Of a stretch of 64,000 bases of DNA, positions 3,921 to 61,670 are shown in pieces. Made by a program: the position numbers and the translations under genes. How positions within the stretch are numbered: the first letter of the stretch is position 1; the number at the start of each line of letters is the position of its first letter. Source of the DNA: Desulfarculia bacterium (GTDB lineage Bacteria > Desulfobacterota > Desulfarculia > G963662305). The stretch covers positions 960,428 to 1,024,427 of the forward strand of contig OY759351.1 of assembly GCA_963662305.1 (NCBI GenBank), read 5' to 3'. The notes beneath the pieces were generated by a model. The model saw only the letters and a list, made by a program, of their open reading frames with translations. It had not been told where the DNA came from and made no database searches.

Positions 3921-3998
3921 GGGCCCATAGCTCAGTCTGGTTAGAGCCACCGGCTCATAACCGGTAGGTCCCTGGTTCGAAGCCAGGTGGGCCCACCA
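3921..3998 (+). tRNA. tRNA with CAU anticodon (elongator Met or lysidine-modified Ile2), CCA encoded
   Basis: Cloverleaf can be drawn: acceptor gggccca/tgggccc, anticodon loop ctCATaa, T-loop GGTTCGAAGCC. G1-C72 pairing argues against an initiator tRNA. Confidence 0.9.
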
Positions 3999-6353: not shown

Positions 6354-6743
6354 GCGGGCCGGAGAGGGACAGGCGGCCGCTGGCCTCGTTTTGAGGCGGG
6401 AGGAAAGTCCGAGCTCCACAGGGCAGGGTGCTGGCTAACGGCCAGTGGGGGCGACCCCAAGGACAGTGCCACAGAGAACAGACCGCCCCGGATCCTGCCT
6501 GGCAGGGCCGGGGTAAGGGTGAAACGGCGAGGTAAGAGCTCACCAGTTCCGGGGGCGACTCCGGAAGCTTGGTAAACCCCACCCGGAGCAAGACCATATA
6601 GGGGGGCGCTGGAGGATGGCCCGTCCGAGTCCCCGGGTAGGTTGCTGGAGGCGCCGGGTAACCGGCGTCCTAGAGGAATGGTCGCCGCCCCGGACCTTTA
6701 TCGGCCGGGGAACAGAACTCGGCTTACGGCCCTCTCCGGCCCG
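6354..6743 (+). ncRNA. rnpB: RNase P RNA, bacterial type A
   Basis: GGAGGAAAGTCCGAGCTCCACAGGGCAGGGTGCTGGCTAACGGCCAG... matches the conserved P4/P5-P7 core of M1 RNA; GGTAAGAGCTCACCAG and ACCCCACCCGGAGCAAG boxes present. A terminal P1 stem (gcgggccggagaggg / ccctctccggcccg) closes the molecule. Confidence 0.85.
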
Positions 6744-12395: not shown

Positions 12396-12517
12396 CATCC
12401 AAGCTTCGGCGCAGCATTTTATTTGTTGGGGGCAGGATGACCATAGGCACGCTAATTGTGTGTTGAGCCGTTGCTATGACCTGATTTATTGTTGATCTGA
12501 AAACAAAATACCTAAAA

Positions 12518-13793
12518 TCAGTTCTGTCCGGCTAGGCGAAGCATAGATTTAACTGATTGTTATTGTGGGTTAAATGATTATTAAAGCTGGGCGGTTGAAG
12601 TAATTTCTGGATGGTGCAGCGTCTGAAGAGGTTGAGTTGAAGGAGTTGAGCCAGTTGCTGAAGGCTTAATCCGAGGGGACAAAGGAACTTGAGGTAGCAG
12701 AGCAAAAGGTAAGCAATCAAGGCCACATAGACCTGAGAAAGAACGGCATTGGGGGAGTTGCCGATAAAGGATTCGATCTTCAGGTTCTGCTTGATGAAGC
12801 GGAAGAAGGTCTCTATCTGCCAGCGTTCCTTGTAGATGTCGGCGATGGTCCTGGCCGAGAGATCGAAGTAGTTGGTCAAAAAGACGTAATGCTTGCCGGT
12901 CTCCTTGTCGCGGTAACCGACTCTTCGCAAGGCCACCGGGTAATCGGCCCATTTGGCCCCTGTAAGCCAGATGACCTGGTCGGAGGTGACGCCCAAACGG
13001 CGGTTGACTCTGTTGCGCTTGACGACCTTGTAGCGAGTGTTTGTTTTCATCCTGGTGACAAAGAAGACACCTTGGCTGGTCAGGGAAAAAAGCCAGGCAA
13101 AGGCGATGTAGGCCTTGTCCATGGCCACAATCGACTCCTTTGGAAGGCGCATGGATCGGGCGGTCTTGGACTCATGACGTTTGGCTTCGGAAATTGAAAC
13201 AAAGGCAGGCAGATAGCCGTCATGATCCAGCAGGGTGTTGATTTTAATGCCGGCCTTAGTCTTTCGAAACCTGGCCCAAGGGAAGAGGCTCAGGCAGAGA
13301 CTGATCGTGGTCGCATCCAAGGAGAACAGCTTGTTTTTAAACTTAAACTTGTGCTTGGGAGCGATGGGCCGACAGCGGCTGTAGACCCGTCCGAACAGGG
13401 CCTCGAAGAAGGAGGCCGGCCGCCTTTCATTGGCCTCGGCAAAGGTGGACCGGACTACTGGTTGGGTACCTAAGTGGTAGAGATTATTGCTCCTGGAGCG
13501 CATGGACCTGACCCCGTCACGGAGCGAGGATCGGCCGGTCAGTTGGATGGCCATGAGGTGAACGAACTGGTCCCAGCGGCTGAATTTGCGGGCCTTGCGG
13601 CCGCTCCCGTGGGCTTTGTCCAGGGTGCTGAAAACATGTCTCGGTACAATCTTGAGCATCTGGGAGAGGATCGTGCTACAATGAGCCATGGCCTGATTTG
13701 TCCTTTCCGATCGGTGAGTTATGCGCAACACCATTATATCGGAATGCCGGATGAATCGGGCCATTTTCTCAACCCTTAACCGGACAGGGCTGA
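12518..13793 (-). mobile_element. IS4-family insertion sequence, apparently intact, with terminal inverted repeats and a 7-8 bp target-site duplication
   Basis: The ends are TCAGTTCTGTCCGGCTAGG (low coordinate) and the reverse complement of TCAGCCCTGTCCGGTTAAGG (high coordinate). CCTAAAA(T) is directly repeated at 12511-12518 and 13794-13801. Confidence 0.8.
12532..13764 (-). CDS. IS4-family DDE transposase
   Basis: 410-aa ORF with the DDE-transposase layout, including a C-terminal YKERWQIETFFRFIKQNL motif characteristic of IS4-type transposases. Confidence 0.85.
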   Translation of the reverse strand: MARFIRHSDIMVLRITHRSERTNQAMAHCSTILSQMLKIVPRHVFSTLDKAHGSGRKARKFSRWDQFVHLMAIQLTGRSSLRDGVRSMRSRSNNLYHLGTQPVVRSTFAEANERRPASFFEALFGRVYSRCRPIAPKHKFKFKNKLFSLDATTISLCLSLFPWARFRKTKAGIKINTLLDHDGYLPAFVSISEAKRHESKTARSMRLPKESIVAMDKAYIAFAWLFSLTSQGVFFVTRMKTNTRYKVVKRNRVNRRLGVTSDQVIWLTGAKWADYPVALRRVGYRDKETGKHYVFLTNYFDLSARTIADIYKERWQIETFFRFIKQNLKIESFIGNSPNAVLSQVYVALIAYLLLCYLKFLCPLGLSLQQLAQLLQLNLFRRCTIQKLLQPPSFNNHLTHNNNQLNLCFA

Positions 13794-14011
13794 CCTAAAA
13801 TATTCATGCTGTGCTTTAACAAAATCGAATACGGTGCTGCGGTTCCGGCCCGAGATAGAGACGCAGAGCCGGTTTCTGTGTCTTTGCTTTCTCCAGTCCG
13901 ACTGTTATTTTTCCGGATGCCTCCGGCGGTCCCTTTGGGGAGGGCAAAGGGTCTCTACGCTTTTTAGAGTGTTTGTCAGAATAACGTTCCGATTCAAAAG
14001 CTGAATGTGCT

Positions 14012-14036
14012 GCCGGGGTCACACCCCGGCAGCCGA
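14012..14036. repeat. GC-rich perfect palindrome related to the REP-like family
   Basis: gctgccgggg-tcaca-ccccggcagc; shares ggggtcacacccc with the 26601 locus. Confidence 0.5.
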
Positions 14037-14332
14037 ATCGGAACAGATTTATGACATTCGCTCTAGATGTCCCGAAGTTCGCCGGCCCTTCGCAACTCCG
14101 CTTGCCAAAAAAATTCTTGCTCAGATTATCGGGCCAATAAAGGATGAACCCGCTTTCGGTGTCGTTTCCCGGCGAACCACCTGCCCGAGGAGTCTTTATG
14201 AAAATTATTCAGCTGATCGACAAGGAGTAAACGATGTTCGCGACCGGACCACAGGTCGGTTGGGGAATGCCTCCGCGTGGTTTGGAAAGCGCCTTCCGGC
14301 AACTGAGGTTGAACCTGTTTTCGGCGAAAGGC

Positions 14333-19578: not shown

Positions 19579-20346
19579 ATGTTAGGAAACGATGTGAGCG
19601 AAAAAAAGAACCTTTTGAGTTTCAAGGACAGCTTCAAGTTCCGCTGCCATCCGGGGGTTTCTTGTTTTACCACCTGCTGCGCCGACGTAACCATCTATCT
19701 GACCCCCTTTGACGTGGTCCGGCTGTGCCAGGCCCTTAAGCTGGAGTCGGACGTTTTTCTGAAGGAATGCACCATGGTCCTGAGCGGCCCCCGGCCGATC
19801 ATTCCTCTGGTGGTGCTGAAGATGCGGGAGGACAAGGAAGGCCTGCCCTGTCCCCTGGTCACCCCCGAGGGATGCTCCGTCTACGACTCCCGGCCCTGGT
19901 CCTGCCGGATGTTCCCCCTGGACCAGATCAGCAAGAACGAGTTTCAGACCATCGCCCAGTCCGATTTCTGCAAGGGCCTGGAGGAGGATTTCAACCAGCC
20001 GGTGCTGGACTACCTCCACAGCCAGGGGGTGGACAAGTCGGCGCTGATGGACGCGGCCTATCAGGAGATCACCAACCATCCCTCCCTGGACGGGATGGAT
20101 GTGGAAAACCCCAAGGTGGCCCAGATGGTCTACCTGGCCTGCTACAATCTGGACCGGTTCAAGGCCTTTGTGTTCGAATCCTCCTTCCTGGACAAGTTCG
20201 AGGTGGAGGAGGAGCGGCTGGAGAGGATCAGAAAAGACAAGGTGGAACTGCTCAAGTTCGGCTTCGACTGGGTAAAGTTCGGTCTTTTCGCGGAAAAGAC
20301 GCTGAAGATCAAACCCCAGGCCACAGGGGGAAAGGCAGGTGGGTGA
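19579..20346 (+). CDS. YkgJ-family putative Fe-S / zinc cluster protein (CxxCxxCC, UPF0153)
   Basis: CHPGVSCFTTCC motif and later CP...GC..Y..RP..CR.FP. Confidence 0.7.
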   Translation: MLGNDVSEKKNLLSFKDSFKFRCHPGVSCFTTCCADVTIYLTPFDVVRLCQALKLESDVFLKECTMVLSGPRPIIPLVVLKMREDKEGLPCPLVTPEGCSVYDSRPWSCRMFPLDQISKNEFQTIAQSDFCKGLEEDFNQPVLDYLHSQGVDKSALMDAAYQEITNHPSLDGMDVENPKVAQMVYLACYNLDRFKAFVFESSFLDKFEVEEERLERIRKDKVELLKFGFDWVKFGLFAEKTLKIKPQATGGKAGG

Positions 20347-21109
20347 GCGGGTGGAGAGCCCGGCCGGATCGCTGAAGCCGGTGGGCCGGGAGTTCCGGTT
20401 CGGCTGCCACCCCGGGGTGGACTGTTTCGGGGTCTGCTGCCACAAACTGGACCTGGTCCTTACCCCCTACGACATCCTGAGGCTGAAGAAGGCCCTGGGC
20501 ATGACCGCGGCCGATTTTTTGGAAAAGCACATCCTCCCGGCCGCTCCGGAGCGCTCCCGGTGGCCTCTGGTCAGACTCAAGATGGAGGCGGGAGAGGAGG
20601 GTCGCTGTCCCTTTCTGGTTCCGGAGGGCTGCCGGGTCTACCGTGACCGGCCCTCGGCCTGCCGGACCTATCCCCTGGCCCGGGCCGCCCAGAAGAACGC
20701 CCAGGGCCAGGTGGCCGAGCGGTTCTTCCTGGTGGAGGAGGCCCACTGCCACGGTTTCAAGGAACGGGAGACCTGGACCATCCAGGCCTGGGTGGCCGAC
20801 CAGGGGCTTGTTCAGTACCACCACTGGAACGACCGCTGGATGGAGATTCTGACTCATCCCCAGGGTCCGGGTGAGGGCCCCCAGACCAAGGCCAAGGTCG
20901 GCATGTTCTACCTGGCCTCCTACAACCTGGACCGCTTCCTGGAGTTCGTCTCCACCCCCAAGTTCGGTTCCCTGTTCGAGCTGGAAGCCGGATTCATGGA
21001 CCAGGCGGCCCAGGACCAGGAGAAGCTTCTGGCCCTGGCTTTCGACTGGATGAAGTTCTCCTTTTTCGGGGAGCCGACCATGAAGCTCAAGGAGGGAGCG
21101 GGGGGATAA
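20339..21109 (+). CDS. YkgJ-family paralog (CxxCxxCC); its GTG start overlaps the upstream stop
   Basis: CHPGVDCFGVCC; about 40% identity to the upstream gene along its whole length; GTGGGTGA overlap. Confidence 0.7.
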   Translation: MGERVESPAGSLKPVGREFRFGCHPGVDCFGVCCHKLDLVLTPYDILRLKKALGMTAADFLEKHILPAAPERSRWPLVRLKMEAGEEGRCPFLVPEGCRVYRDRPSACRTYPLARAAQKNAQGQVAERFFLVEEAHCHGFKERETWTIQAWVADQGLVQYHHWNDRWMEILTHPQGPGEGPQTKAKVGMFYLASYNLDRFLEFVSTPKFGSLFELEAGFMDQAAQDQEKLLALAFDWMKFSFFGEPTMKLKEGAGG

Positions 21110-21220
21110 TCCTGCTGTAAGTCCTTCCCTGCTCTTTAAACGAAAAGGATTCGGACGGGGGGGCTCTTAACAGGCGGTGCCAGGGCTGCATCCCCGAGGC
21201 CCACAATGGAGACCGCCTCC

Positions 21221-21395
21221 GCCGGCCCCTTCCATCCCGCTCGCGAAAAACATTTTTCTCCGGGCGGTTCTCTGTACTCCGGGCCTTTCATTACCGTGGG
21301 GTTGTTGGAACAACCATACAGACCCCGTGAAAGCTGGAGCTGAAGGAACGATACGCCGACCATTAAGGAAGCCGCCCCTGTTCATGGGCGGCCGT
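21221..21395 (+). repeat. copy A of a duplicated conserved non-coding element (131-nt core)
   Basis: About 80% identity to 26411-26541. Shared blocks are gccggcccctt, cgcgaaaaacatttttctccgggcg, gcctttcat.accg and cagaccccgtgaaagctggag.tgaaggaacga. Confidence 0.6.
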
Positions 21396-21435: not shown

Positions 21436-21993
21436 TTAGTCCAGCTTCTCAACCCAGCCCATCACCCTGTCTCTGAGTTCCTTTTCCCCCAGCTCCACGG
21501 CCACGGACAGCAGCAGCTCAGCCGCCACCCCGGCCTTGGGGCGGGCCGAGCCCAGATGGGCCAGCAGTCCGGACACGTCGGCCTGGGCCTGGGCAGGGGC
21601 CGCTCCCAGCAGATCGGCGGCCAGGCCTCTCAATCCTTCGATCCCTTTGGGCCCCAGGACGGAAAGTTCCCGGTCAGTGTCCGGGACAGGGATTTTTCCC
21701 GCGATCAGCCCGCCCTGGGCCTGGCCCTGGGCGGCCGGGATTGCCAGGCCCAGCTTATCCGCTCCTTCCAGCCCGCTGTCGGTGAGGCGAACCGTCCCGC
21801 CCAGGCTGACTATCTCCACCAGGTGCCGGCCGATCAGGTCCTCGGCCGTGTGGCGGGTGCCCTCCTTGTCCAGGCCCAGTTCGGTTCCGATCTCGTACAT
21901 GGAGATGTTGACCGTAGTGTCGCCCCCGGTTTTTTCCACCAGCTTGGCCAGGAAATCCAGGGAGGTCTTGTTCAGATTGTCGATAAAAAGCAT
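21436..21993 (-). CDS. hypothetical protein
   Basis: 185-aa ORF with GC3-rich coding composition; no family recognised. Confidence 0.45.
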   Translation of the reverse strand: MLFIDNLNKTSLDFLAKLVEKTGGDTTVNISMYEIGTELGLDKEGTRHTAEDLIGRHLVEIVSLGGTVRLTDSGLEGADKLGLAIPAAQGQAQGGLIAGKIPVPDTDRELSVLGPKGIEGLRGLAADLLGAAPAQAQADVSGLLAHLGSARPKAGVAAELLLSVAVELGEKELRDRVMGWVEKLD

Positions 21994-23230: not shown

Positions 23231-25201
23231 GTGAATCCTTACAAGTTGCTTTTCAGTCCCCTTAACATAAATTCCATAACCCTTAAAAACCGGCTGGTCA
23301 TGCCCCCCATGGGAACCAATCTGCCCACCCGCACGGGCGAGGTCACCCAGGAGTTGATCGACCACTACGCCGCCAGGGCCAGGGGCGGGGTGGCCTTGGT
23401 GACGGTGGAGGGAACCACGGTCCATTCCTCGGGCCGGGGTTTCAACTTTCAGCTTTGCGCCGACCGGGACGAGCTGATTCCCGGCCTGGCCGACCTGGCC
23501 GGAGCTATAAAGGAGGTCGGGGCCGTGGCCCTGCTCCAGCTCCACCACGGCGGCCGCAACACCGACGTCCGGGTTTCGGGCCGGCCCCCCCTGGCCCCTT
23601 CGGCCCTGCGCAGCCCGGTGAGCCGGGTCACCCCCGAAGCCATGAGCCTGGACCAGATAGAGCTGATGGTGGAGGCCTACGGCCGGGCCGCGGAGCGAGC
23701 CCTGGAAGCCGGCTTCGACGGGGTGGAGCTTCACGGAGCCCATGAGTACCTGATCCACCAGTTCCTCTCGCCCTACTGCAACCGGCGCACGGACGACTAC
23801 GGCGGCAGCGAGGAGAACCGGCTCCGCTTCCCCCTGGAGGTCATCGCCCGGATCAGGCGGCGTCTGAAAAACGAGATTCTGTCCTTCCGGCTCAACGGCT
23901 CGGATTATGTTCCGGGCGGGTTGACCATCGAGGAGGGGGTCCGCATTGCCCAGGCCTTGGTCCGGGCCGGGGTGGACCTGATCTCGGTCACGGCCGGGCT
24001 GTACGAGACCCCCCACAAGCTCATCCCCCCCCTGGACACCCCCCGGGGGACCCACCTGGACCTGGCCGCCGAAGTGAAAAAAAGGGTGGACCGGCCGGTG
24101 GTGGGGGTGGGCCGGATCATCGACCCGGCCCAGGCCGAGCTGGCCCTGCGCCGGAACCAGGCCGACCTGATCGCCGTGGGCCGGGCCCTGCTGGCCGATC
24201 CGGAATGGCCCCGCAAGGCCCGGGAGGGCAGGTGGAAGACCATCCGCCGCTGCGTGGGCTGCAACCAGGGCTGTATCGACCACATGTTTTCCGACCGCCC
24301 CGTGACCTGCCTCTACAACCCCCGCACCGGCCACGAGCGGGAGCTGGCCCCCCGGCCCTGCACCCGGTCCAAACGGGTGGTGGTGGTGGGGGCCGGTCCG
24401 GCCGGCCTGGAGGCGGCCAGGGCCCTGGACCGGATGGGTCACCGGGTCATCCTCCTGGAAAAGGAGCACCGCATCGGCGGCCAGGTCAACCTGGCCAGCC
24501 GCGCCCCAGGCAAGGAGGAATTCCGCTACATCATCGATTATTACCGGCAGGTTTTGAAACAAAGCGGCATCGACCTGCGTCTGGGCACGGAGGCCGACGC
24601 CCGCGCCGTACTGGATCTGGACCCCGACGAGGTGGTGGTGGCCACCGGCTCGGTGCCCCTGAAGCCGGACCTGCCCGGACTGGACGACCCCGGGATCCTC
24701 ACGGCCCACCAGGTCCTCTCCGGAGAGGCGGAGGCGGGCCGCCGGGTGGTCATCCTGGGCGGGGGTAATGTGGGTCTGGAGACGGCTTATCTCCTCCTCA
24801 GCCAGGGCCGGGAGGTGACCGTCATGGAGATGGGCCAGCAGGTGGGCCGGGATCTTGGCCCGGCCCGGCGGTACCTGCTCAACAGAAAGTTGCGGGACCT
24901 GAAGCTGAAACGGCTGGTCAGCTGCAAGATCCGCCGGGTCCACTCGGACCGGGTCTCCTACGTCCGCTATCTCAACGACGGCCGCCGGACCCACCAGGAG
25001 CTGACCGGGATAGACAGCCTGATCGTGGCCCTGGGAGTGCGTCCCCAGGACAGGCTGGCCCTGGAGCTGGAGGAGGTGGATCTGCCGGTCCACCTCATCG
25101 GCGACGCTCTTACCCCGGGCAAGATCCTGGACGCGGCAGGGGAGGGGGCCAGGGTGGCCCAGCTGATAAACGGTCAGGCCGAAAAAAGGAAAATCGCTTG
25201 A
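23231..25201 (+). CDS. NADH:flavin oxidoreductase (Old Yellow Enzyme TIM barrel) fused to an FAD/NAD(P)-binding domain, 2,4-dienoyl-CoA-reductase-like
   Basis: The N-terminal OYE motifs are GVELHGAHEYL and FLSPYCNRRTDDYGGS. A GCNQGC motif follows. The C-terminal domain has a VVVVGAGPAGLEAA Rossmann fold. Confidence 0.8.
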   Translation: MNPYKLLFSPLNINSITLKNRLVMPPMGTNLPTRTGEVTQELIDHYAARARGGVALVTVEGTTVHSSGRGFNFQLCADRDELIPGLADLAGAIKEVGAVALLQLHHGGRNTDVRVSGRPPLAPSALRSPVSRVTPEAMSLDQIELMVEAYGRAAERALEAGFDGVELHGAHEYLIHQFLSPYCNRRTDDYGGSEENRLRFPLEVIARIRRRLKNEILSFRLNGSDYVPGGLTIEEGVRIAQALVRAGVDLISVTAGLYETPHKLIPPLDTPRGTHLDLAAEVKKRVDRPVVGVGRIIDPAQAELALRRNQADLIAVGRALLADPEWPRKAREGRWKTIRRCVGCNQGCIDHMFSDRPVTCLYNPRTGHERELAPRPCTRSKRVVVVGAGPAGLEAARALDRMGHRVILLEKEHRIGGQVNLASRAPGKEEFRYIIDYYRQVLKQSGIDLRLGTEADARAVLDLDPDEVVVATGSVPLKPDLPGLDDPGILTAHQVLSGEAEAGRRVVILGGGNVGLETAYLLLSQGREVTVMEMGQQVGRDLGPARRYLLNRKLRDLKLKRLVSCKIRRVHSDRVSYVRYLNDGRRTHQELTGIDSLIVALGVRPQDRLALELEEVDLPVHLIGDALTPGKILDAAGEGARVAQLINGQAEKRKIA

Positions 25202-26250
25202 ACTACACGTATAGCAACCGTTCCATCCGTTCCGTTCTGGAGGAGGTGGAGGAGAAGACCCTCTCTCCCCTGGCCGCCAGGTCGGCCCGGAGCCGGGGCC
25301 GTCTCAGGCCCGAGCCGGAGTGCGACCTGCGCCCGGCCTTTCAGCACGACCGGGACCGCATCCTCCATTCCAAGGCCTTCAGGAGGCTGAAGCACAAGTC
25401 CCAGGTCTTTCTCTCCCCCACCGGGGACCACTACCGGACCCGGCTGACCCACACCCTGGAGGTGGCCCAGATCGCCCGGACCATGGCCAGGTCGTTGCGC
25501 CTCAACGAGGACCTGACCGAGGCCATCGCCCTGGGCCACGACCTGGGCCACACCCCCTTCGGCCACGCCGGGGAGTCGGTCCTGGACAGTATTGTGGAGG
25601 GCGGGTTCCGCCACAACGAACAGTCTTTGCGGGTGGTGGATATCCTGGAGGGGCTCAATCTGACCTTCGAGGTCAGGGACGGCATCCTGAAGCATTCCAA
25701 GGGCAAGGGCCAAATCCTGGACAACGACCCGGAGCTGATGGCCCGGACCCTGGAGGGCCGGCTGGTCCGGGTGGCCGACATCATCGCCTACATCTGCCAC
25801 GACATCGACGACGCCCTCCGGGCCGGGGTCCTGGTCGAGGGGGACCTGCCCGCCGAATACACCGACCTGGTGGGGCGGACCCATTCCAGCCGGATCGGGA
25901 CCATGGTCCGGGACCTGATCATGACCACCCTCCAGGTCGGCGACGGGGACCTGCATCTGACTTCGGAGATGACCCAGGCCATGGCGGGGCTGCGCGAATT
26001 CCTCTACGCCGAGGTCTACGGCAACCGGACCATCAAACGGGATTTCGATCGGGCCAGGAAGGTCCTGGCCGACCTGTTCCGGGCCGTGAAGGAGGAACCA
26101 GGGAGGCCCGAGTTCGGCGGAGCGGTAGCCGTCCGGGCGGGCGACGACGGCACCCAGGCCGCGGTGGACTTCATCGCCGGCATGACCGACCGCTACGCCC
26201 TGGACCTGTACGACAAGCTGTTCCTGCCCCGGCCCTGGGCGGTGCTTTAG
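25198..26250 (+). CDS. dgt: dGTPase-like HD-domain phosphohydrolase
   Basis: FQRDRDRILHSKAFRRL and HD motifs HTLEVAQI...GHDLGHTPFGH; TTG start overlaps the upstream stop (TTGA). Confidence 0.8.
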   Translation: MNYTYSNRSIRSVLEEVEEKTLSPLAARSARSRGRLRPEPECDLRPAFQHDRDRILHSKAFRRLKHKSQVFLSPTGDHYRTRLTHTLEVAQIARTMARSLRLNEDLTEAIALGHDLGHTPFGHAGESVLDSIVEGGFRHNEQSLRVVDILEGLNLTFEVRDGILKHSKGKGQILDNDPELMARTLEGRLVRVADIIAYICHDIDDALRAGVLVEGDLPAEYTDLVGRTHSSRIGTMVRDLIMTTLQVGDGDLHLTSEMTQAMAGLREFLYAEVYGNRTIKRDFDRARKVLADLFRAVKEEPGRPEFGGAVAVRAGDDGTQAAVDFIAGMTDRYALDLYDKLFLPRPWAVL

Positions 26251-26410
26251 AGGCCGGTGGAACAACCGATCAGGCCCTGTGAACAAAGGGCAGATTTTCT
26301 GCGTCACCTTGCTTGGAAGCTGAGTATGGGGTTAGGCAATCGTCCTTTTACCTCCGGCGGTCGCTCCGCTATGGCCAAGGGGCCTGTACGCCTTTTCCGG
26401 GAAAAGGCTC

Positions 26411-26580
26411 GCCGGCCCCTTGGAACCCCGCTTGCGAAAACCATTTTTCTCCGGGCGCCTCAAACCAATTTTGCCTTTCATACCGAAAGGGTGATTGGAG
26501 CAGCCCGTCAGACCCCGTGAAAGCTGGAGATGAAGGAACGAGAAGCCCAAAATAATGTTTCCCGACCATTTCATGGCCGG
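26411..26580 (+). repeat. copy B of the duplicated conserved non-coding element
   Basis: The core is the same length (131 nt) as 21221-21351, with compensating 1-nt indels. Confidence 0.6.
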
Positions 26581-26600
26581 TGCTTTACGGACAAGATTTT

Positions 26601-26727
26601 GGGTGCGACTGCCGAGGTCACACCCCGACACAGAGAAAAAATGTCCCCTCTCCCCCCCTGGGGGAGAGGATTAAGGTGAGGGGGGTTTCTCGATTAAGTG
26701 GCGTCAGGGCTGCGTCCATGACAGCGA
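26601..26727. repeat. cluster of GC-rich palindromic repeats (REP-like)
   Basis: The cluster holds gggtgcgactgccgaggtcacaccccgac, cctctccccccctgggggagagg and gtggcgtcagggctgcgtcc. These words are shared with the 2302-2448 locus. Confidence 0.55.
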
Positions 26728-26878
26728 ATAGGAATCGAATGCGCTCTTTCCGGAATCCTCCCGTGAGGGCCGAGGAGCAGCTCCAATTTAACCTTGTCCG
26801 GTGGGGTGGTACGGACTATATTTGGGCTTTCGAGCCGCCGCTCCATCCGCCGCTGAACTTCACTTCCGGGAGAATTGT

Positions 26879-28147
26879 TTGGATCGAATCGTAATCAAAG
26901 GAGGCCGGCCCCTCAAGGGGGAGATCCCTATCTCCGGGGCCAAGAACGCCTGCCTGCCCATCATGACCGCCACCCTTTTAACCGACCGCACCTGCACCCT
27001 GCGGGGCGTGCCCGAACTGATGGACGTCCGGACCATGGCCCGGCTTCTGGCCCACCTGGGGGTGGAGGTGACTCCGGAGATGGCCCGGGCCGAGACGGTC
27101 ACCTTCAAGGACGGCAATCTCTCCACCGTGGAGGCGCCCTACGAGCTGGTCAAGACCATGCGGGCCTCGGTCCTGGTCCTGGGGCCCCTGGTGGCCCGGC
27201 ACCGCCGGGCCAGGGTCTCCCTGCCCGGAGGCTGCGCCATCGGGGCCCGGCCTATCAACCTCCACCTCAAGGGCTTGGCCGCCATGGGAGCCACCATCGA
27301 GCTGGAGGAGGGCTATGTGGTGGCCTCGGCCAGGAGGCTCAAAGGCGCGGACTTCACCTTTGACCAGGTCACCGTGACCGGAACCGAGAACCTGGTCATG
27401 GCCGCGGTCCTGGCCAGGGGCGAAACGGTGCTCCGCAATGCGGCCAGAGAGCCCGAGGTGGCTGATTTGTGCCGGGTCCTGATCCGGATGGGGGCCCGGA
27501 TAGAGGGACTGGACACGGACACCTTGACCATTGAGGGGGTGGACCAGCTGGAGGGCTTCGACTACCGGGTTATGCCCGACCGGATCGAGACCGGGACCTA
27601 TCTGGCCGCGGCGGCCATTACCGGCTCCCGGCTGAGCCTGACCAAGGCCCGGCCCGAGACCCTGGGTGCGGTCCTGGCCAAATTCAGGGAGGCCGGGGTG
27701 GTGCTCAAGACGGGGCCGGACCGCCTGGAGATCGACGCCCGCCAGGGCGGCCTCCGGGCAGTGGACTGCACCACCGCGCCCTATCCCGGATTCCCCACGG
27801 ACATGCAGGCCCAGCTCATGGCGGCCGTGTCCCTGGCCCAGGGAACCTCGGTGATCAAGGAATCCATCTTCGAGAACCGGTTCATGCACGTCCAGGAGCT
27901 GGCCCGGCTGGGGGCCGACATCCAGGTGGACGGCAACCGGGCCGTGGTCCGGGGGGTGGCCCACCTTTCCGGGGCTCCGGTCATGGCCACGGACCTGCGG
28001 GCCTCGGCCTGCCTGATCGTGGCCGGGCTGGCCGCCCGGGGGGAGACCACCATCCGCCGGGTCTACCACCTGGACCGGGGCTACGAGCGGATCGTGCGCA
28101 AGCTCTCGGCCGCAGGAGCGGAAATCCGGCGGGAGAAGGACAAATAG
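26879..28147 (+). CDS. murA: UDP-N-acetylglucosamine 1-carboxyvinyltransferase
   Basis: [19 protein letters not shown]-terminus and active-site region. The start is probably TTG 26879; the listed ORF extends further upstream. Confidence 0.85.
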
Positions 28148-45186: not shown

Positions 45187-46010
45187 TCATTCACGTCCAG
45201 CTAAGGGTAGAAAAAATGGCCCGACTCGCCCTGGTTCCCGGCATAATGGTGTTGCTTGTAACCCACTAATCGGAATGGATAAATCAGGATATGGTTCATT
45301 GTGGCACGATCTTCTCCCGGATGCTCAAAATCATCCCGCGACATGTTTTCGGTACCCTGGACAAGGCCAACGAAAAACGCCCGGCTTCCTTTTTCGAAGC
45401 CCTTTTCGGGCGGGCCTATAACCGTTGCCGACCCGTTGCTCCCAAGCACAAGTTCAAGTTCAAAAACAAGCTCTTCTCACTGGACGCGACCACGGTGAGC
45501 CTCTTTCCCTGGGCCAGGTTCCGCAAGACCAAGGCCGGGATCAAGATCAACACCCTGCTCGACCATGACGGCTATCTGCCTGCTTTTGTATCAATTTCAG
45601 AGGCAAGGAAGCATGAATCCAAGACCGCCCGAACAATTCGCCTGCCCAAGGGTTCCATCGTGGCCATGGACAAGGCCTACCTCGCCTTTTCCTGGCTCGC
45701 TGCCCTGAACAACAGGGGCGTCTTTTTCGTCACCAGGATGAAAAAGGGCACCCGTTTAAAGGTCGTCAAAAGGAACCAAGCCAATCGCCGCCTGGGCGTC
45801 ACTTCCGATCAGACCATCTGGTTGACCGGCTCCAAATGATCAGATTACCCGGCCGCGCTGCGCCGGGTCGGCTACCGGGACAAGGAGACCGGCAGACATT
45901 ACGTTTTCCTGACCAACAATTTCGACCTCGCCGCCAGGACCGTCGCCGACATCTACAAGGAACGCTGGCAGATCGAGACCTTCTTCCGGTTCATCAAGCA
46001 GAACCTGAAG
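45187..46010 (+). mobile_element. degraded IS4-family element (left end plus transposase remnant; 3' end missing)
   Basis: Similar to the 12518-13793 IS at nucleotide level, including the left terminus gtcc.gctaagggt.gaaaaaatggcc, but diverged and truncated after ...FIKQNLK. Confidence 0.75.
45291..46010 (+). pseudogene. IS4-family transposase pseudogene (internal deletion, frameshift near 45836, 3' truncation)
   Basis: Two-frame reconstruction: MVHCGTIFSRMLKIIPRHV... then ...DYPAALRRVGYRDKETGRHYVFLTNNFDLAARTVADIYKERWQIETFFRFIKQNLK*. Confidence 0.8.
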
Positions 46011-46458
46011 ATGCACTCTCCAGGAGCTCCTTGAACCGCCAGTATCAAAGAATGATATTACATGTGAGAACAACCAGTTAACCTTGTGCTTCACTTAGCC
46101 GGGCAGAAATGATTTCAAGGCAAGATCACTCTGTCGCTGGACCAAAATTCGGGGAGAGGTCAATTCCTTTGAATTTGCTGATCAGCATAAGATTTTATGC
46201 GTGTAAATCCTTTCATGATTTTCCTGTAAACCTGCCCAAGGAGAGCTCACTGCTAACATTGAAAATCAAGCGACGCCACTCAGCTCCCTCGTGAGCCTTT
46301 TAATCCCCCAAGGGGGGTTTAATTCCCTGCGGCTTGCCGCGAGTGCAACCACCGTTTTCTCCTGCCATACCCCGCTGCTTGCTGCGGGGTGGTTGCTTAA
46401 ATTCACTTTGCAAATTCCGGAATATGCTTGACCGCACCAACAGGACAGGTTATGCATA

Positions 46459-60527: not shown

Positions 60528-61670
60528 TTATTTTACATCGCTGACCAAATGTCGAGTGGGAAGATGGGGCCAAGCTGTAACTATAATTACCTGCACCCAC
60601 CTCTCGTACTCTGCCCCCTTTAAGACGCGTTTATTTGGCCGTGAGGCTATCTTTGCGGCTGCCGGTTGGCGAACAATACCCAATTTCTTCATGCGCGTGT
60701 ACAGTGTGGTCCGCTTCATTCCCAAAATCTCGGTTACGCCGCCCGCACCGCTTATTTTGCCGCCGCACTTTTTAATGGCGTGGGTAATATAGCGACGTTG
60801 CAATTCATCCATGGTGGGGAGATCCGTGAGTAAATTTTCATGAAATTGATATCCCTGGTTTGCGCCGCCACGCGTTTGGGGAACCGCCAGCTCAAGATCT
60901 TTGCCGTCCGACAGAATTACGCTGCGTTCAATGACGTTTTGCAATTCCATGACATTGCCCGGCCATTGATAAGCCCTCAGTATGGTTTGGTTCTTATGGG
61001 AAAGCTCCTGGGGAGGTTTTTGATATTTTTTGGCATATTTATTGAAAAAATATTCTACCAGGAGGACGACGTCATTACCCCGCATACGCAGCGGTGGAAC
61101 CACCAGGGGAACTACATTAAGTCGGTAATATAAATCTTCCCTGAAATTGCCGTTACCGACGTCTTTTACCAAATCACGGTTTGTGGCGGCCACCAGTCTG
61201 AAATTGGAGCCAATACTTTTTACGCTTCCCCCTCTGAAAAAGGCTTTTTCCTCCAAAGCACGCAATAGCTTGACCTGTGCGGGCAGGGAAATTTCGCCTA
61301 TTTCATCGATAAATAAAGTTTCCATGTTGGCCAACTCCATACGACCCGGCTTCTGGTTAACCGCCCCGGTAAGCGAGCCTTTTTCATGGCCGAACAGTTC
61401 GCTTTCGAGCAACATCTCCGGTACGGCGGATAAATTTACGGCAACGAAGGGGCCCACTTTACGGGAACTCATGCCGTGAACTCTTCTGGCCAGAAGCTCT
61501 TTGCCGACTCCGGTTTCGCCAAGGATCAATACCGGAGCGTCGGATCTGGCGGCCTTGTCCGATTGCGCAAGCACCTTTTGCATGGTCTGGCTGTGGCAGA
61601 TGATCCCCCTGCCGTCCAATTGACCGCCGGAGGTGGTTTCCCTGAGCGCCGACACGGTCTTTTCCGCCAT
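60528..61670 (-). CDS. sigma-54-dependent transcriptional activator, AAA+ and HTH domains only (sensor domain lost)
   Basis: The gene has GETGVGKE Walker A, GAFTGA-like ESELFGHEKGSLTGA and an HTH at the C-terminus. Only about 30 aa precede the AAA+ domain in this frame. A partial GAF-like fragment lies in another frame in ORF 61526-61954. Confidence 0.6.
   Translation of the reverse strand: MAEKTVSALRETTSGGQLDGRGIICHSQTMQKVLAQSDKAARSDAPVLILGETGVGKELLARRVHGMSSRKVGPFVAVNLSAVPEMLLESELFGHEKGSLTGAVNQKPGRMELANMETLFIDEIGEISLPAQVKLLRALEEKAFFRGGSVKSIGSNFRLVAATNRDLVKDVGNGNFREDLYYRLNVVPLVVPPLRMRGNDVVLLVEYFFNKYAKKYQKPPQELSHKNQTILRAYQWPGNVMELQNVIERSVILSDGKDLELAVPQTRGGANQGYQFHENLLTDLPTMDELQRRYITHAIKKCGGKISGAGGVTEILGMKRTTLYTRMKKLGIVRQPAAAKIASRPNKRVLKGAEYERWVQVIIVTAWPHLPTRHLVSDVK

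Follow-up and report, generated by a model that had tools for sequence, protein, structure and literature searches.

What a pair of similar segments in two different gene gaps represents was the question raised by this locus, which lies in a 64-kb stretch of bacterial DNA (hereafter the window). An earlier note on this DNA had described the segments as a candidate small RNA (sRNA) pair or a novel repeat and had left their coding status ambiguous. Neighboring proteins place the window in an uncultured Desulfobacterota/Thermodesulfobacteria-like lineage, and we consider it probable that the segments, designated A and B, belong to a small family of non-coding repeats that is specific to this lineage and dispersed among its intergenic regions. 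The repeat half of the earlier proposal was favored because more copies were found and these occupied non-orthologous sites, while the sRNA half gained no support. Overall, the pattern was better explained by a dispersed, lineage-specific repeat than by a conserved pair of sRNA genes or a small protein gene.

Architecture and gene context of copies A and B

A BLAST search of the window against itself revealed that A (21220-21357) and B (26410-26547) were collinear on the same strand with 77% identity over 140 nt, in agreement with the earlier description of two cores of like length and orientation that were about 80% identical. They were the sole non-coding repeat pair in the window, IS copies aside, and some coding paralogues were also detected. 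Past the core, a weaker homology reached a 3' hairpin, referred to as T, at 21371-21392 in A and 26562-26580 in B. The full extents of the copies were 21220-21392 (A) and 26410-26580 (B), with an identity of ~77%. The AT near-palindrome and the conserved 3' block that had been reported for the core were both present; the former reads GAAAAACATTTTTC, and the latter contained an exact 21-mer, CAGACCCCGTGAAAGCTGGAG, which occurred twice in the window compared with 0.01 occurrences expected by chance. The compensating 1-nt indels noted previously between A and B were also evident in the alignment.

We found that the unit was modular and oriented, consisting of an upstream GC-rich palindrome, a 5' block of ~48 nt (P), a variable middle of ~50 nt, a 3' block of ~33 nt and the terminal hairpin, all of which are given here on the + strand. 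In A, the upstream hairpin module (21172-21218), which was read directly and by a REP pattern match, contained the degenerate REP-like palindrome GGTGCCAGGGCTGCATCCCCG at 21176-21196 and was closed by AGGCGGT / ACCGCCT. The following P block (21220-21267; CGCCGGCCCCTT...CGCTCGCGAAAAACATTTTTCTCCGGGCGG) contained an imperfect palindrome, CGCTCGCGAAAA-ACAT-TTTTCTCCGGGCG, with an A5-N2-T5 core. The variable middle spanned 21268-21318, and the 3' block (21319-21351) had the form CAGACCCCGTGAAAGCTGGAG-C-TGAAGGAACGA. The T hairpin of A, an inverted repeat (GCCGCCCCTG / CATGGGCGGC), had no U-tract on the + strand, and it could also serve the convergent minus-strand gene. In B, the span 26351-26423 held the upstream module U (CCTCCGGCGGTC...) and a nested palindrome of 49 nt, CCAAGGGGCC..GCCTTTTCC-G-GGAAAAGGC..GGCCCCTTGG, which was formed by U and the start of P and had its arms at 26375-26398 and 26400-26423. 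The upstream palindrome was thus REP-like in A and nested in B. The remaining parts of B were the P block (26410-26457), the variable middle (26458-26508), the 3' block (26509-26541) and the T hairpin, CCGACCAT-TTC-ATGGCCGG, which was homologous to that of A. Upon alignment of A and B with a third full copy from another organism (on contig L009, described below), the invariant columns clustered into the 5' and 3' blocks around the variable middle (permutation p=0.005), where only ~45% of the columns were invariant.

The gene context was as stated in the earlier note. Copy A is flanked by two convergent genes, of which the one on the + strand (20339-21109) encodes a CxxCxxCC-domain protein and the one on the minus strand (21436-21993) a 185-aa protein, and B lies upstream of murA in a gap of 628 nt (~630 nt in the earlier note) that follows the HD-domain dGTPase gene dgt (25198-26250). 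The true start of murA is a TTG codon at 26879. Copies A and B, as well as a partial copy, C, were all on the + strand, and A, B and the L009 copy each followed a co-directional gene; no co-directional gene was located downstream of A or the diverged copy C.

A sigma-70-like promoter for murA (26794-26822; TTGTCC-17-TATATT) was observed ~57 nt upstream of the TTG start. The surrounding region (26785-26899) had 88% nucleotide identity to the closest relative, L012. As this promoter is located downstream of B and is conserved with L012, the expression of murA is probably independent of the inserted repeat. An integron attC site, a parS site and a riboswitch leader were considered for the unit and rejected on account of a poor fit to the context, since A and C have no downstream co-directional gene and murA has its own promoter. 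We also ruled out that A and B are att-like repeats flanking a 5-kb island, because relatives natively have the order Lactamase_B-dgt-murA. In the window, a gene for a 656-aa oxidoreductase (23231-25201) with Oxidored_FMN and pyridine-nucleotide-disulphide oxidoreductase domains separates the Lactamase_B gene from dgt. This gene was present at the same position in L012 and missing there in the relatives L003 and L004, which indicates a gene-level insertion or deletion.

Other elements were located on the + strand in the dgt-murA gap. Just after the dGTPase stop, a possible fragment of the 3' part of the core (TGGAACAACCGATCAGGCCCTGTGAA; 26258-26283) was detected with an nhmmer E-value of 0.1; its status is uncertain, and part of it looks orthologous to the L012 sequence. 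Downstream of B, a series of hairpin modules (26608-26725) comprised a REP-like palindrome (26611-26629), the hairpin CCTCTCCCCC/GGGGGAGAGG (26647-26669) and a second REP-like palindrome (26700-26722). The middle hairpin has a perfect 10-bp core and was reported by the terminator scan as an 11-pair stem (26646-26670) followed by a T-run on the minus strand, where no gene was found upstream of it. It was kept, and duplicated, in the orthologous spacer of L012.

Further copies and their distribution among relatives

The earlier note had suggested a search for further copies in the genome and its relatives, and this search yielded one partial copy, one full copy and one probable copy. The partial copy, C, retained only block P (14079-14118, + strand), which was 80% identical to that of B (nhmmer E=1e-5), and the sequence downstream of P was diverged or unrelated. 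Module U, which is common to B and C, was found at 13919-13964 in C (CCTCCGGCGGTCCC...TACGCTTTT), and it was separated from P by a palindromic insertion of 101 nt (13965-14065) on the same strand. The units can therefore be truncated or interrupted, as in C. The insertion itself was MITE-like, with 31-nt inverted arms that were 74% complementary around the perfect REP-like hairpin CTGCCGGGGTCACACCCCGGCAG. We also observed that block P of C reads TTGCCA-N16-GATTAT, a plausible sigma-70 promoter, and that a 10-codon mini-ORF (MKIIQLIDKE; 14198-14230) lies downstream of it after a strong GAGGAG ribosome-binding site.

The full copy was identified in a metagenome scan with a pattern that fit block P of A, B and C. 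It is located on contig L009 (NPIE01035009.1) from another organism, downstream of a larA-like gene, and it was preceded by the same kinds of hairpin modules. The L009 copy showed identities of 74-78% to A and B, so that all three were roughly equidistant, and the same blocks were conserved. Assemblies often break at repeats, and the L009 contig ends inside the element. The probable copy was obtained from an exhaustive protein search with a 64-aa ORF that one pipeline had called across U, P and the core of B. Apart from low-complexity WD-repeat noise, the search matched only the ORF of the window itself and P0127, a 49-aa ORF on a 2.6-Mb contig of another genome. P0127 was 80% identical to the ORF across U and P of B, with an identical stretch of 24 residues, suggesting that one more copy of the family is probably present at this site.

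In total, ~5 copies were seen, with two full copies and one partial copy in ~75 kb (the 64-kb window together with 11.5 kb of L011, a contig that shares its ENA sample with the window genome). The remaining ~50 kb of the window and L011 yielded no further copies. The exact 21-mer had one match in the genome collection, inside an alcohol-dehydrogenase gene of 'Bacterium HR19', which we rejected as a chance match, and the plasmid and viral contig collections contained no match to the element. A peptide query concatenated from the six translated frames and aimed at ORFs annotated over other copies also gave no scoring match among 8000 candidates, most of which were probably noise. The earlier note had allowed that additional copies might show the element to be a fragment of a known mobile element, and no IS-end, plasmid or viral match of this kind was obtained. 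An inverted-repeat scan revealed no terminal inverted repeats at the termini of A and B, only internal hairpins.

An IS4-like element (12507-13804) lies near copy C; its transposase, encoded on the minus strand (12532-13764), is a 410-aa DDE enzyme that contains a DUF4372 domain, and the element has imperfect inverted repeats of 28 nt. A second IS4-like copy with ~80% identity is located at ~45195-46012 in the opposite orientation, and the same type of transposase was found in L011. Derivation of the unit as a MITE from the neighboring IS4-like element was rejected, as the unit did not significantly resemble the ends of either IS copy in the window.

We compared the sites of the copies with the corresponding regions of related genomes. 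In the closest relative, L012, the dGTPase had 88% amino acid identity and the order of the oxidoreductase gene, dgt and murA was kept, but the dgt-murA spacer was only 272 nt compared with 628 nt in the window and contained no U, P, core or T. Likewise, L003 and L004 (85% amino acid identity) had a spacer of 118 nt without the element. The element was also absent from the DNA after larA in L010, whose LarA was 88% identical at the amino acid level to that of L009, and in L011. Judged from these sequences, the copies occupy non-orthologous sites and differ in presence or absence between close relatives. Because B is missing from relatives whose flanks are ~12-18% diverged, it is not an old resident conserved in place; at the same time, B is ~25% diverged from A and hence is no recent copy of A. 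These absences could conceivably reflect deletion in the relatives and not gain at these sites. In L008 and L012, which are ENA long-read contigs, comEC, rpsB, dgt and murA were among the genes split by apparent frameshifts, and single-base indels in those contigs may therefore be sequencing errors.

The intergenic spacers of the relatives were too diverged for exact insertion boundaries of the element. An exact 10-nt direct repeat, CGGTGCTTTA, was found on the + strand at the dGTPase stop (26240-26249) and again just after the T hairpin of B (26578-26587). The two repeats were spaced 338 nt apart, a distance similar to the length of the extra DNA in comparison with L012 (~325 nt). The counterpart at A was only the 6-nt AATCCT, and other short similarities in these GC-rich spacers were clearly due to chance. 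The CGGTGCTTTA pair could mark a target duplication on either side of the B insertion, but we regard this indication as weak.

RNA gene, protein gene or local duplication

The view that A and B are paralogous + strand sRNA genes, with a promoter within the 5' block or upstream of it, an end at the 3' hairpin and the conserved 3' block (…CCCCGUGAAAGCUGGAG.UGAAGGAAC…) as the functional or seed region, appears doubtful, although it is the alternative to which we assign the most weight. The size of ~150-175 nt, the common orientation and the 3' hairpin shared by A and B would suit such genes, but neither a sigma-70 promoter nor a U-tract terminator was found at A or B. Block-wise, non-uniform conservation is also expected of a functional RNA among copies that are ~25% diverged. 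Covariation, which the earlier note had proposed to examine, gave weak negative evidence: with only three sequences available, the RNAalifold covariation term was unfavorable on both strands and broken pairs outnumbered compensated ones. The + strand folds of the ~240-nt regions were somewhat more stable than shuffled sequences (z = -2.0 for A and -2.6 for B), but these values were unremarkable and favored no strand, as the minus strand gave -0.2 for A and folded equally well for B (-2.7). A GG-N10-GC motif resembling a sigma-54 promoter was present in B and L009, and the window contains a sigma-54 activator-like gene (60528-61670, minus strand), whose Walker-A motif, GETGVGKELLAR, is typical of sigma-54-dependent activators and indicates that the organism probably uses sigma-54. 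However, the promoter candidate in block P of B (TGGAAC-N5-TTGCG) was at chance level, with 58 matches at 3 mismatches in the window compared with 83 expected from shuffles, and its GG was missing in A and C although the A core was equally conserved; it was consequently rejected. A role as a CsrA sponge through GGA motifs was also rejected, because only one GGA, that in GAAGGAAC, was conserved in L009. At the gathering threshold, Rfam identified only RNase P (bacterial class A RNA, 6361-6741, 305 bits) and one tRNA gene (3921-3995) in the whole window, and a search of both loci at E<=10 returned only noise of 13-18 bits where 40-100 are required, consistent with the earlier statement that the segments match no RNA family that could be named. 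Additionally, no copy was kept at an orthologous site in the nearest relatives. The sRNA and repeat explanations are nonetheless compatible, and both could coexist. A further variant, in which the unit is a mobile, self-contained RNA gene for a structured RNA of ~150-250 nt with the conserved blocks as a functional scaffold, seems improbable. Such an RNA could act, for instance, as a guide or decoy for an enzyme whose gene lies elsewhere; its U/P helix would tolerate large insertions, by analogy with expansion segments in structured RNAs, and the family would spread as an RNA-gene cassette and not as inert repeat DNA. Only if this RNA-scaffold reading were true would the family have a bearing on a long-standing open question.

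Two other explanations were weighed against the dispersed repeat. The first holds that a small protein is translated from the element, whether from the two minus-strand ORFs (75 and 99 aa), which we found at 21136-21363 and 26332-26631 as previously described, or from the 64-aa + strand ORF over B. The frames are open on both strands, one pipeline called a gene over U, P and the core of B, and P0127 is a similar called ORF, but long open frames are expected by chance in DNA of 62% GC and the protein search added nothing to these matches except noise. Three separate 1-nt indels leave no single frame through A, B and L009, and the SFL.LQLSRGL frame contains an in-frame TAG in L009. Codon periodicity, another check suggested by the earlier note, was not apparent, as the differences among the three copies showed no clear three-base pattern (14/8/15, 12/9/9 and 14/11/9), and the 21-mer was identical at every nucleotide, including the would-be synonymous sites. 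On this sequence evidence the coding option, left ambiguous before, appears effectively excluded for the copies, and we regard a small protein as extremely improbable. The second is a one-off local segmental duplication within a 12-kb neighborhood, which would be immobile, functionless and neutrally decaying. Although A, B and C are on the same strand within 12.4 kb and the rest of the window and L011 are free of copies, homologues lie beside unrelated genes in at least one, and probably two, other organisms. The rough equidistance of A, B and L009 with retention of the same blocks is not uniform decay, and B, which is absent from the closest relative despite the kept gene order, is too far from A to be a recent copy. 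We therefore consider a local duplication very unlikely.

The distribution of the copies shows that units have been copied into intergenic gaps that are unrelated to one another, in the typical case immediately after a gene of the same direction. Each of the full copies (A, B and L009) is preceded by a co-directional gene, and an inserted unit would thus be read through as part of the 3' untranslated region of the upstream gene. The hairpins of the unit could then act as 3'-end barriers or stabilizers, as REP and BIME elements do. The conserved end blocks may be kept for the copying or insertion process, or for a DNA- or RNA-binding protein. In particular, a nucleoid protein might plausibly bind the A5N2T5 palindrome, much as IHF has its sites in E. 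coli RIP/BIME elements.

Comparison with known intergenic repeats and REP-like palindromes

To place the unit among known bacterial systems, we compared it with several families of intergenic repeats. It was closest in kind to BIME/RIP, ERIC or BOX elements, as it is oriented, modular and mosaic with REP-like palindromes. The BIMEs of E. coli, including RIP and RIB, are mosaics in which REP palindromic units are combined with conserved linker motifs that are not palindromic, and one of these linkers contains an IHF site. The present units resemble BIMEs, as described in the literature, in that they are strictly outside genes and often at 3' flanks, combine GC-rich palindromes with conserved non-palindromic segments in a composition that varies by site, contain an AT-rich bendable motif in a GC-rich frame and show presence/absence differences between relatives. 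As expected of a REP/BIME-type mosaic repeat, all copies are intergenic and GC-rich palindromic units are combined with other conserved motifs. In contrast to BIMEs, the conserved non-palindromic part is much longer here (~130 nt), the sequences are unrelated to the E. coli REP/BIME motifs, and the copies are few, as counted in ~75 kb of genome. ERIC (or IRU) elements of enterobacteria and BOX elements of Streptococcus pneumoniae are intergenic repeats of 100-150 nt or of modular build. These are similar in unit size, in their modularity with truncated versions, in their position in transcribed intergenic regions and at non-orthologous sites in related species, in having no coding capacity and in their obscure means of movement. 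However, they share no sequence similarity with the present unit and belong to a different phylum, and ERIC is one long imperfect palindrome, whereas the present unit is oriented and not palindromic overall.

The unit also had features in common with MITEs such as the Neisseria Correia/NEMIS elements, which are likewise short, non-autonomous and intergenic with conserved ends and a more variable middle, and copy C is itself split by an insert that is palindromic and MITE-like. The terminal inverted repeats that define MITEs were nevertheless not found here, a target duplication was suggested only by the weak CGGTGCTTTA candidate at B, and the ends did not match the IS4-like element of the window. 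Multi-copy sRNA families, such as the sigma-54-dependent Qrr and the GlmY/Z-type RNAs, are similar in being same-orientation paralogues of ~150 nt, each of which has one conserved block and a hairpin at its 3' end, but there was no supported promoter, U-tract terminator, covariation among the three sequences or conservation at matching sites in relatives for the present unit.

If this reading is right, an uncultured and little-studied Desulfobacterota-like lineage harbors an intergenic repeat family that had not been described before. The family appears undescribed, although it is a familiar kind of bacterial intergenic repeat. It would account for breaks in contigs and for false calls of small ORFs, could be used as a marker of strains or lineages, and would show recent intergenic remodeling beside core genes, as in the dgt-murA gap. 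Oriented non-palindromic repeats that have conserved ends and no recognizable transposase are mechanistically unexplained.

REP-like palindromes of the form GGTGTCGGGG-loop-CCCCGACACC flanked or lay within A, B, C and the L009 copy. Related palindromes were present in all of the fetched relatives (L003, L004, L009, L010 and L011), which points to a clade-wide REP family. In another part of the window, three REP-like palindromes in +/-/+ orientation were observed between two genes (2299-2447), with the unit GGCGGTGTCGGGG-GTGCGA-CCCCGACACCGC and variants carrying the loop CTGCGT. The sequence GCCGGCCCTTGG, similar to the beginning of block P, precedes the first of these palindromes.
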